64,000 nucleotides of DNA, from NCBI GenBank assembly GCA_039586795.1, contig JBDHJS010000013.1, forward strand, positions 18,464 to 82,463, written 5' to 3'. Numbering within the stretch: position 1 is the stretch's first letter; each line of letters starts with the position of its first letter. Source of the DNA: Gemmatimonadota bacterium. Its GTDB lineage: Bacteria; Gemmatimonadota; Gemmatimonadetes; Palauibacterales; KS3-K002. A program made the position numbers. Positions 30,101 through 33,100 of the stretch are shown piece after piece.

Positions 30101-33100
30101 TGCGAACACGTTACGCGCACAACCAGAAGGGACTGCGCGTGGATGTGGGCGACGAGGTCCGTCGCGGCGATACGATTGCGCTGGTGGGTAGCAGCGGCCA
30201 GGTGACCGGCCCGCACGTCCACTATGAAGTACTCTTGAACGGACAGGCCGTGAATCCGGTCAACTACCGACTAAGCGATGTGATTGTGGAGTAGGCAGAG
30301 CAGGACAGTAGAGAAGAGGGACAGTTTGAGGAAGAGCGGGCCGTTTTGGTCCGCTCTCTCTTTATGTAGTGGATCTATGTAGGGGGGCGATCCTTCTTCA
30401 ATGTTCACCTCCGACTAATACCTTCTCGCCCTCTACCTTCACGACATACGTCCTCACCGCCACCCGCACCGGCCCACCCATCGGCTCTCCAGTCCGCACA
30501 TCGAATTGTCCTCCATGCCAAGGACAGTTAAGCGTGCAACCATCGACCGATCCCTCACTCAGCGAGGCGCGCCCATGTGTGCAGCGGTCGCTCACGGCGT
30601 AGTAGGTGCCGTCGACGTTGAACAGCGCGATGGCGTCGGCACCGTTGTACACCCGCTTCGACGAGCCCGGCGCAATCTCGCCCACCTTCGCCGCCACCAC
30701 AAAGCCTTCCTCGTCGCGCTCCGTCACCCGAGCCTGCTCGGAAACCGAGGCGCCGCCCAGCGAATCGAGTACGTCCCACAACGACATCTGGATGCAAGTG
30801 AAGATCGGCGTATCGCGCAGCGTGTAGGTTGACGCTTTGCTCTCTCGCAGGTCCATCACCAGGTCGAGGAAGGCGCCGGCATCGTCGCCCTCGAACCCAA
30901 CCATAAACTCCTGGTCGTCCAGCCCGAACGAGTACGCCGTGTTGATGCGTATGTCCGGATACTTGCGGCCCACCACAACGTGCTGCGTCATCAGCTCTTG
31001 ACGCTCGGCGTGCGGCAAGCTGTACCAGGCCCGCGTCTTCACGAACGGGTAGAGAAACAGATACTTCGAGTCCTGCGGCGCCACCGTGATGCTCTCTTGC
31101 TGGTCCAGCTCGGCGGGAAACTCGTACACCGAACGCTTGGTCATCGCCAGATAGCTGTACGGCGTCGTCAGGTAGGCGCCCAGGCGGGTGGAGAAGATGG
31201 CCGTCTCCAACGCCTGCAGCGTCTCCAGATCTTCCGCCGCCTGCCAGATCATCATGTCGCAGTCGCCCCGCGTGCCGACCGTGCTGTAGGAACGGAGGAG
31301 CGACCGGGCCTGGAATCCGCGGATCGTGTCCGCAAGCTCCACCTTGTGGTCGATCTGCTTGTCGGCGGATAGCCGGCGCCAGGTGGAATCGAGCTTGAAG
31401 AACAGGTAGCGGACGAGCTGCCGGGCTTCGCCTTGTTGGGTCATTCGGGGACCTCTGTCGTTGGTTTGGGCCATGAAAAGCCCGAATTCTAATCGAGATC
31501 GCGCAACCGCGGAAGGTCAGCCTGAGCATTGAGCGTTGAGGATTAATTGATGAGGATTGCCATGAAACTCTCAACACCTAACGCTCAACCCTCAATCATC
31601 AGGTTCCGGTTCTTGGAATGCTCTGGTGGCACGGGAGGTTCCCCGAGGCGCTGAAACCCCGCTCAGGGAACGCACGTAGTGGAGGATGACTTTCACAGCG
31701 GGCAGGCTATTTACTTACAACGGGGCAGAACAGTGGGTAGACTCTTAGTCAACGGCATCACTCTTTACCAGGGTCTGATCATCCTCCGGGCCATCCTCTC
31801 CTGGGTCGCCGGCCCGAACACCGAGAACCGGCTAGTCGAGATACTTCACCAGTTGACGGACCCGGTGCTCAAGCCGGTACGTGAGATGCTTCCCGCTTCC
31901 AGCGGGATCGATTTCTCGCCGCTGGTCGTGCTGATCGGCCTGGAATTGGTAAAGAGGATCTTACTCTGAACCCGAGCTGTCGGCCGGGGGCGGATACGTC
32001 CATTCCCACGGCTCGAACGTCTCGAGGGGAACCGCGCCGATGACCTTGGCCGTCACCAGCTGAGGGAACTCGGCAATGAACTCATTGAAGCGGGCCGCGG
32101 CTTCGTTGTACATGCGGCCCGCTTCGATTATCGCCTGCTCCGTGTCCCGCAGTTGGGACCTGAGCAGCTGATAACCCTGGTCGCTCTCCAGCTGGCTGTA
32201 ACGGCCCACCGCCGCCAACAGCTCGTCCAGCGCCTGCGACAGCCGGGCGCTCCATTCCTCCATATCGCCCAGATCGCCGGCCCGCACCGCGCTGACCAGG
32301 CTGGCCCGGGCGTCGGCGACCGCCGTCACCGACTCGTCGCCCACCGACCCGTAGGCCTGGAGCGCCGCCAGCAGGTTGGGTACGAGCTCCGCCCGGCGCC
32401 GTAGTTGGACCTCGATCTCCGACCGGGCCCGGATCGCCGACTCGTCCAGCTCGTGGATCTGCCCATAGCCGCAGCCCGCCAGCAGTGCTGGCAAAGCGAA
32501 TACCGCCACGGCGAGCCGCCGCGGCTTGCGGCCTACGAGTTTGTAGCTTATAGCACCCATTCCATCAAGAAGCGCCGGCTGCCTGGAGGGTATCCGCCCG
32601 TCCCACAGCGGGCGAAATGGGTCCGGCCTGTGCGGCGCTTGATAACTCGCGAAATCGTTCCTAGCTTTTTGACGATTCAGCGGGTCAGAACTTTAATTCG
32701 GGAGAGCTCAATGAACAAGCATTGGGTCATGTGTCTTGCCGCCCTGGTGGGGCTGTCGGCATGCCAGAGATCCACCCAACTCGCGGTACGTGCCGTCGCA
32801 GAGTCGGGCGACGAGGAGGTTGCCCGGCAGCAGGAGATCATCCGGCTCCTGCCCTTCGACCGGGATTCGCTATTCACGGCCCTAGCGGCGCTGGCGACGG
32901 AATCGGAGCCGGAGCCGCCCGAGTACCTGGTGGCGCTGCGCGACTCGGTCTCGGCGGCGCGGCAGTTGTGGACGGACTCGGAAGCGGCTTGGAATGACAT
33001 GCGTTCCGAGATGCAGACGCTCTCGGAACAAATGAACGAGATGAACCGGGCGAGCCGTGAGTACGCCAACGCGTATCGCCGCTTCGACGAGTTGGACCGC

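Follow-up and report, generated by a model that had tools for sequence, protein, structure and literature searches.

A conserved fusion of a coproheme decarboxylase homologue with a Rieske ferredoxin domain in Gemmatimonadota and other bacteria

A genome of the Gemmatimonadota (GenBank assembly GCA_039586795.1) encodes a homologue of coproheme decarboxylase (ChdC, also known as HemQ) that carries a Rieske [2Fe-2S] ferredoxin domain at its C-terminus. The fusion is confirmed as real and lies in one reading frame, its assignment to the ChdC of a coproporphyrin-type heme pathway is well supported, and it is a conserved and apparently undescribed variant of a known enzyme; no paper with a ChdC-Rieske fusion as its subject was found in a literature search that lay mostly outside subscription journals, and phylogenetic supplements could list some. 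Its interest lies mainly in making the question of the ChdC oxidant testable in a single protein, because the natural fusion puts a candidate redox partner inside one small soluble protein. The oxidant of ChdC in cells is unsettled, with reviews naming H2O2 as the one 'most probably' used and leaving FMN and anaerobic turnover open (PMC13564367, PMC7611857). ChdC carries out the last heme step in Firmicutes and Actinobacteria, so that an answer would reach beyond uncultured lineages.

The gene lies within the window, the whole stretch of 64,000 nucleotides analysed here, and is a single open reading frame at 30398..31444 on the minus strand (as are all features below), stop codon included, encoding 348 residues (P0001). 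Two ATG codons could start the minus-strand frame that ends at 30398, at 31474 (358 residues) and at 31444 (348 residues); the close homologues, which are labelled as Gemmatimonadota, are 347 residues long and match the start at 31444, and the GAGGT at 31451..31455, 6 nt upstream of this ATG, is judged from its sequence to be the likely ribosome-binding site. An artefact of assembly or a frameshift is ruled out, because both domains are present in all 120 homologues among the matches listed and an independent contig, from sequencing run X4 and a different study from that of the best holder, crosses the linker and junction with zero differences. The gene stands alone in this genome, with an M23 peptidase gene on one side and a YggT gene on the other. 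RNA matches consist of a single 156-base contig at a depth of 2.7 in run X20, which gives no evidence of expression, and the richest DNA holders of the sequence are sediment and estuary sequencing runs.

Pfam places Chlor_dismutase (PF06778) at residues 36-219 (E 1.5e-55, 188 bits) and Rieske (PF00355) at residues 249-333 (E 3.6e-19), which reproduces the gene coordinates, the two domain spans and the CxH...CxxH pattern given in the initial annotation, the ligands being C288, H290, C307 and H310. With the structure matches taken into account, the ChdC/HemQ domain covers residues 1-231 (30752..31444) and consists of two ferredoxin-like folds; it is followed by a variable linker of residues 232-247 (30704..30751) and by a Rieske domain of the dioxygenase/suf-ferredoxin type at residues 248-345 (30410..30703). 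Between the two Gemmatimonadota families that carry the fusion the domains are 56-75% identical and the linker 20%, and the Rieske domain (56%) is as well conserved as the N-terminal fold (58%). An AlphaFold2 model of the protein (pLDDT 84) has a whole-chain pTM of 0.80, which hints at a fixed arrangement of both domains. Residues 6-231 of the model superpose on ChdC and chlorite dismutase structures with Z of 23-25 and rmsd of 2.1-2.6 Å over 212-222 residues, and residues 246-348 on CarAc and BphA3 with Z of ~18 and rmsd of 1.0-1.2 Å over 102-103 residues.

Alignment with Listeria HemQ identifies the likely active site of the N-terminal domain. Tyr132 (31049..31051), in the motif Y-P-F-x-K, corresponds to the catalytic radical Tyr147, and His155 (30980..30982) to H174, the proximal iron ligand; both are present in all 225 fused homologues, a set picked by similarity to two fused queries. 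K136 corresponds to K151, W140 to W159, S205 to S225 and Y107 to Y113, and R200 aligns with R220, which we take to belong to the functional set as well (substrate binding). The complete catalytic and substrate-binding set is conserved in 224-225 of the 225 fused proteins, and functional roles in ChdC for Listeria Y147, K151, W159, H174, S225 and Y113 are given in PMC5157759. The fusion protein is likely to be a coproheme decarboxylase, and the initial annotation is supported where it sees a homologue of ChdC, belonging to a coproporphyrin-type pathway, whose Rieske domain is conserved.

The structurally characterised ChdCs of Listeria monocytogenes (5LOQ, 6FXJ), Corynebacterium diphtheriae (6XUB/6XUC) and Streptomyces coelicolor (9MIQ) share the fold (Z 23.6-24.2, rmsd 2.1-2.5 Å) as well as the catalytic Tyr, the proximal His and the propionate-binding Lys, Arg, Ser, Tyr and Trp. 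The fusion differs from them in its extra C-terminal Rieske domain, in a distal Ile/Leu where they have Gln or Ala, in a Val/Ile after the proximal His where they have Gly, and in a loop that in P0001 is without His; identity is 25-30% (29.8% to Arthrobacter HemQ, 27-30% to S. coelicolor ChdC). Unfused homologues from Nitrospira and other diderms belong to the same clade and likewise have a bulky residue after the proximal His and a distal Leu/Ile, but they have no Rieske domain and carry a linker-loop His in 49 of 55 cases. The N. defluvii ChdC is reportedly active and defines clade 4. One review states only that heme is made by clades 1, 2 and 4, in some diderms too.

The clade 1 chlorite dismutase NdCld (3NN1) has the same fold, is a joint top match by structure (Z 24.9) and supplies the usual database label of such proteins. 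Chlorite dismutase is rejected as the function: Ile167 (30944..30946) aligns with Listeria Q187 and with the catalytic distal Arg of chlorite dismutases, and among the 225 fused homologues the position is Leu in 129, Ile in 93, Val in 3 and never Arg, while the fusion has Tyr where chlorite dismutases carry Ile. The common 'chlorite dismutase' label of the fused proteins is thus corrected, since the distal Arg is absent.

The cluster-binding stretch of the Rieske domain (30515..30583) contains the four ligands, invariant in 225/225 fused homologues, and Arg287 and Arg292 beside the first of them, with R287 kept in 224 and R292 in 168 (Asn in 51). Just beyond it are G312 and F314, at positions where Rieske proteins of high potential have Ser and Tyr. 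A disulfide pair is absent as well, and in these features the domain differs from the genome's respiratory-type Rieske proteins. Both residues occur together in 49/49 Gemmatimonadota sequences and some relatives from outside the phylum differ; across the 225, position 312 is Gly in 136, Ser in 56 and Ala in 33, and position 314 is Phe in 213 and Tyr in 12. Dioxygenase ferredoxins, which are donors with potentials of about -150 mV, are described as having Phe in place of the high-potential Tyr (PMC1847435) and as being without the hydrogen bonds from Ser (PMC11638306). The domain is thus a putative [2Fe-2S] carrier with the sequence signature of a low-potential dioxygenase ferredoxin. The basic residues R287 and R292 may raise the potential of the cluster, and the Ser (56/225) or Tyr (12/225) of some relatives could raise that of theirs.

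The folds of the Rieske ferredoxins BphA3 (2E4P), CarAc (1VCK) and BphF (1FQT) match that of the domain closely (Z 17.6-18.4, rmsd 1.0-1.2 Å), and dioxygenase and suf-operon ferredoxins share with it the CxH...CPxH ligands, the Phe after the last His and the lack of a disulfide. In contrast to these, the fused domain is joined to a heme enzyme and has conserved cluster-side Arg residues, and in the annotated loci no ferredoxin reductase or oxygenase gene was found beside the fusion gene. Its closest paralogue in this genome is the ferredoxin of the suf operon (46-47% identity); the fused domains share an R-C-x-H-x-R/N motif, whereas the free form is acidic there. Mutual-information covariation across the 225 fused sequences (~92 effective) was dominated by lineage signal and yielded no contacts that could be used, and a prediction of the complex formed by both domains and heme (score 0.23, mark 0.32) was counted neither for nor against an interaction.

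The hemE-cpfC-cgoX operon that the initial annotation reported on contig C48 of this genome was confirmed, HemN, HemF and HemJ were not found in the genome, which is 97.8% complete, and we infer that its chelatase and oxidase prefer coproporphyrin. Among 58 genomes that carry the fusion, HemF was found in none and HemN above its cut-off in two, co-occurrence counts that include kin and are hence descriptive. No heme gene lies within 1.5 kb of the fusion gene in this genome or in any of 20 loci of its own family. In family f3, which belongs to another order of Gemmatimonadota, one does so in 28/28 loci (hemE in 27, cyoE in 19), and the fusion gene follows a cytochrome c oxidase operon in 5 of 12 long loci. 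Typical gene orders are cox operon-cyoE-fusion-hemE-cpfC-cgoX and fusion-cpfC-hemA-hemC-hemD-hemB, and cpfC directly follows the fusion gene in several Chloroflexota loci, where an aldo/keto reductase gene also occurs upstream. Among the loci listed in a wide scan of genome contigs, a heme gene was present within 6 kb in 24/29 fused versus 2/51 unfused loci, and a separate Rieske gene near the unfused ChdC homologues was found in none of the 51.

Proteins resembling AhbD also occur in these genomes. An AhbD-like radical SAM gene is part of the same operon at L110, L117, L120 and L122, four of the 29 fused loci among those listed, and three of the four proteins were scored, at 458-465 bits against an AhbD cut-off of 500; none of the AhbD-like proteins of the carriers passes this cut-off. 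A TIGR04053 protein above cut-off is present in 26 of the 58 carriers (16/21 in the own family, 10/37 in f3), and at E<=1e-40 at least one AhbD/TIGR04053-like match occurs in 55 of the 58. With AhbD-like proteins this common among carriers, the claim that the fusion is the only decarboxylase of its genome was dropped.

The initial annotation described the fusion as family-wide, which holds within the family, where 20 of 30 other genomes have it in full or nearly so, and is too narrow beyond it, as the fusion occurs in at least four named phyla. Nine full matches and one partial match had been reported among the 11 other family genomes at least 90% complete, and the same numbers were obtained: the partial one (G414) consists of four frameshifted pieces, the eleventh (G417) gave no ChdC-domain match, and the stops reported inside two matches (G407, G423) turned out to be the terminal stops of the genes themselves. 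Elsewhere in the family, G418 has an unfused homologue and G429 a fusion split over contig ends. The reported absence from the sister family also stands, with a full-length fusion in 0/30 genomes; a PF06778 protein is nonetheless present in 26 of these 30. A phylum sample of 401 genomes contained 40 with the full fusion, namely this genome, one member of its family and 38 of the 166 genomes of f3, among them the unpublished G179, and 133 of the 173 PF06778-bearing genomes were without a full-length fused match. The wide scan yielded at least 80 loci and at least 29 fused ones, those listed comprising 14 from Gemmatimonadota, 12 from Chloroflexota and one each from Phycisphaerales, Hydrogenedentes and another bacterium; the nearest unfused group among the loci listed is mostly Nitrospira.

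In a quick ChdC tree five changes of the fused/unfused label are required, and the unfused proteins of family f6 nest among fused proteins (support 86); three rows labelled unfused (L116, L119, L126) end at contig ends, and 31 Nitrospira-type rows were thinned beforehand. The same subclades recur in a tree of the Rieske domains, built with only four free domains and with the suf ferredoxin of this genome left out, which suggests that the two domains travel together. Three sequences (P0123, L118, L123) are ChdC-Rieske-AhbAB triple fusions, whose additional Lrp-fold module resembles AhbAB/NirDL and could be regulatory.

For the role of the Rieske domain, the reading that is tentatively favoured on sequence grounds, while falling short of probable, is that of a tethered low-potential one-electron donor with whose help coproheme would activate O2, so that peroxide is not needed. 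The cluster, reduced by a cellular reductase, would reduce bound ferric coproheme; O2 would bind to the ferrous coproheme; a second electron would give an Fe(III)-peroxo species and then Compound I (or H2O2 generated on the spot); and oxidised Tyr132 would attack the propionate in the manner of known ChdCs. Two rounds of decarboxylation would yield heme b, and the enzyme would consume O2 and electrons with no wait for free peroxide. This reading is favoured because a low-potential-type cluster suits the reduction of the coproheme iron better than its oxidation. It draws support from the nearness of a -150 mV-type cluster to the Fe(III)/Fe(II) potential of coproheme-ChdC, -205 mV (PMC5157759), and from the need of the mechanism for Compound I, the known ChdC reaction running via Compound I and a Tyr radical according to PMC7611857. 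The structures nearest to the Rieske domain are those of dioxygenase ferredoxins, which are donors, and the title of one paper has ferrous HemQ and O2 giving heme b. The frequent position of the gene after a cytochrome c oxidase operon in f3 and the co-occurrence of AhbD-like enzymes add further support; in Haloferax, PMC5746218 describes ChdC as the aerobic and AhbD as the anaerobic route.

Against a donor role, the electron step from about -150 to -205 mV would be slightly uphill and would need O2 binding as a pull, the annotated loci have no ferredoxin reductase beside the gene, and the potential could be raised by R287/R292 and, in some relatives, by the Ser or Tyr. Most ChdCs manage without a Rieske domain, the unfused f6 proteins sit among fused ones in the tree and the unfused loci listed have no separate Rieske gene. 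Adjacent heme genes are missing from this genome and from all 20 family loci, and all AhbD-like proteins remain under the AhbD cut-off.

The initial annotation had hinted at an electron acceptor other than peroxide under low oxygen, in which case the oxidised cluster would take up the electrons and coproheme would be decarboxylated without peroxide or O2. The donor reading is placed ahead of this one, which is weakened by the low-potential signature of the domain, by the frequent linkage of the gene to cytochrome c oxidase genes and by the AhbD-like genes, AhbD being the known oxygen-independent route, in the four operons and, as AhbD/TIGR04053-like matches, in nearly all carriers. Moreover, formation of the Tyr radical requires a far stronger oxidant, of about +0.9 V. 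An acceptor role is accordingly rather unlikely, even with several points in its favour: the basic residues by the cluster may raise its potential, TIGR04053 is above cut-off in only a minority of f3 carriers, the sequence is best represented in DNA runs from sediment and estuary, and a dsr/apr/qmo cluster with dsrAB, aprBA and qmo (dsrA above cut-off) occurs in the host together with a cytochrome c oxidase. FMN, which replaces H2O2 in vitro, is reported as a ChdC acceptor, so that a low-potential acceptor is conceivable, a point that also counts against the donor, and anaerobic turnover is left open in the reviews cited above. The Rieske domain might instead set the redox state of the iron outside C-C cleavage, oxidising ferrous coproheme delivered by CpfC, or reducing either the heme b formed or a stray Compound I/II for protection and hand-off, for example to heme O synthase. 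Heme O synthase requires ferrous heme, and cyoE is close by in most f3 loci as cpfC is in Chloroflexota; the product is also described, for ChdCs, as being bleached by excess peroxide. However, the unfused homologues of f6 lie beside cyoE too (4/4 loci), and PMC7340540 reports that coproheme on CpfC is oxidised to the ferric state instantaneously in vitro, which leaves such a role unlikely.

Two further explanations dispense with electron transfer to an active enzyme. The Rieske domain could have no electron path to the heme and be an iron/redox sensor, or a passenger derived from a ferredoxin gene of the suf type, as its closest paralogue, the commonness of unfused relatives and the possibly regulatory module added in the triple fusions would allow; this is improbable given that its ligands are invariant, that it is conserved as well as the N-terminal fold, that Rieske and ChdC trees have matching subclades, and that the motif of the fused form is distinct from the acidic free form. 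It is more doubtful still that the N-terminal domain is no active decarboxylase and serves as a coproheme or heme carrier, or as the chlorite dismutase of the database label. In its favour, a homologue from Sulfolobus that has the complete motif is reportedly inactive, and the protein scores under both NCBIfam ChdC cut-offs (NF042928, 127 bits against 235; NF008913, 79 against 253), models that cover the actinobacterial and firmicute clades and not that of the fusion protein. There is also no His in linker-loop residues 108-127 of P0001 to match the actinobacterial distal base H118 (a linker-loop His occurs in 58/225 fused versus 49/55 unfused relatives), and a Val occupies the position of S. 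coelicolor G169, directly after the proximal His, where G169V/L variants of the S. coelicolor enzyme have been crystallised. On the other side, the catalytic set is complete, relatives have the gene in heme operons, the distal Arg required by chlorite dismutases is absent, and 55/55 unfused relatives, mostly of the Nitrospira type, likewise carry a bulky residue directly behind the proximal His.

In a wider reading, possible if rather doubtful, heme would be completed in a third way, by a ferredoxin-driven, O2-activating coproheme decarboxylase that works without free peroxide and has spread as a unit through Gemmatimonadota, Chloroflexota and further groups, and the joining of an AhbAB-like siroheme decarboxylase in some Chloroflexota-type genomes would link the siroheme and coproporphyrin routes within a single chain. 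If this holds, ordinary ChdCs may get electrons from free ferredoxins in cells too. ChdC fusions as such are already known, namely CpfC-ChdC of Cutibacterium acnes and PitA (ChdC-ABM) of haloarchaea; these likewise combine ChdC with a second domain, but the partner there is a chelatase or a heme-binding domain and not an Fe-S carrier.

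Val156 of the fused coproheme decarboxylase (ChdC)-Rieske protein, the residue immediately after the proximal histidine (window 30977-30979), aligns with G169 of Streptomyces coelicolor ChdC, for which crystal structures of the G169V and G169L variants contain the three-propionate intermediate; a literature search for G169V and coproheme found no paper. In the alignment, this position is occupied by Val, Ile or Phe in all fused proteins (225/225) and by a bulky residue in all unfused relatives (55/55).

The combination of ChdC and Rieske domains is extended further in P0123, a triple fusion that carries an AhbAB/NirDL-like siroheme decarboxylase (Pfam PF17805 and PF22451 both matched). 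BLAST placed such triple fusions at L118:5986-8163 and L123:5950-8532, both within heme operons. Other architectures were also seen, with a PCP_red domain N-terminal to ChdC in P0128 and a DUF1802 domain C-terminal to it in P0269.

The aldo/keto reductase encoded immediately upstream of the ChdC gene in nine Chloroflexota-type loci (L094, L095, L098, L116, L118, L119, L121, L123 and L126) is a possible source of reducing power. In the host genome, a free Rieske ferredoxin sharing 46-47% identity with the fused domain is encoded in a suf-type operon (G000:C17:11589-17428; suf genes labelled by eye).

In f3, a Gemmatimonadota family of another order, the gene cluster (L174:1-16001 and L176:131-5501) opens with a gene for a 657-residue protein. 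Next come genes for a radical SAM protein that resembles AhbD/NirJ2 (286-307 bits) and for a membrane protein of 574 residues, followed by cytochrome c, cox and heme genes; neither the 657- nor the 574-residue protein had an NCBIfam match at 1e-30. HemN/HemW-like proteins were matched at E≤1e-5 in 36 of 37 f3 carriers, in contrast to the host's own family, where none of the 21 carrier genomes had a match at this threshold; this family may lack the heme chaperone HemW.

Contig C73 of the host genome encodes a 733-residue protein combining ferrochelatase with a glutamyl-tRNA reductase-like domain (G000:C73:49841-52039, equivalent to L053:7842-10040), which is flanked by a siroheme-dehydrogenase-like gene and aprBA. 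A dissimilatory sulfur cluster of this Gemmatimonadota genome (G000:C73:52400-77000) contains a dsrA that exceeds the cut-off, aprBA and qmo-like genes, together with sat, dsrMKJOP, dsrC and a dsrD-like ORF identified by eye only.

In the host's own family, G414 (L081) has the fusion gene in four frameshifted pieces, reflecting either error or decay, and G418 (L082) has an unfused homologue that is placed outside the fused group. In the window, the fusion gene and a convergent M23 peptidase gene are separated by a gap (30295-30397) in which a short inverted repeat within purine/pyrimidine tracts was noticed on reading the sequence; this is perhaps a terminator shared by the two genes.
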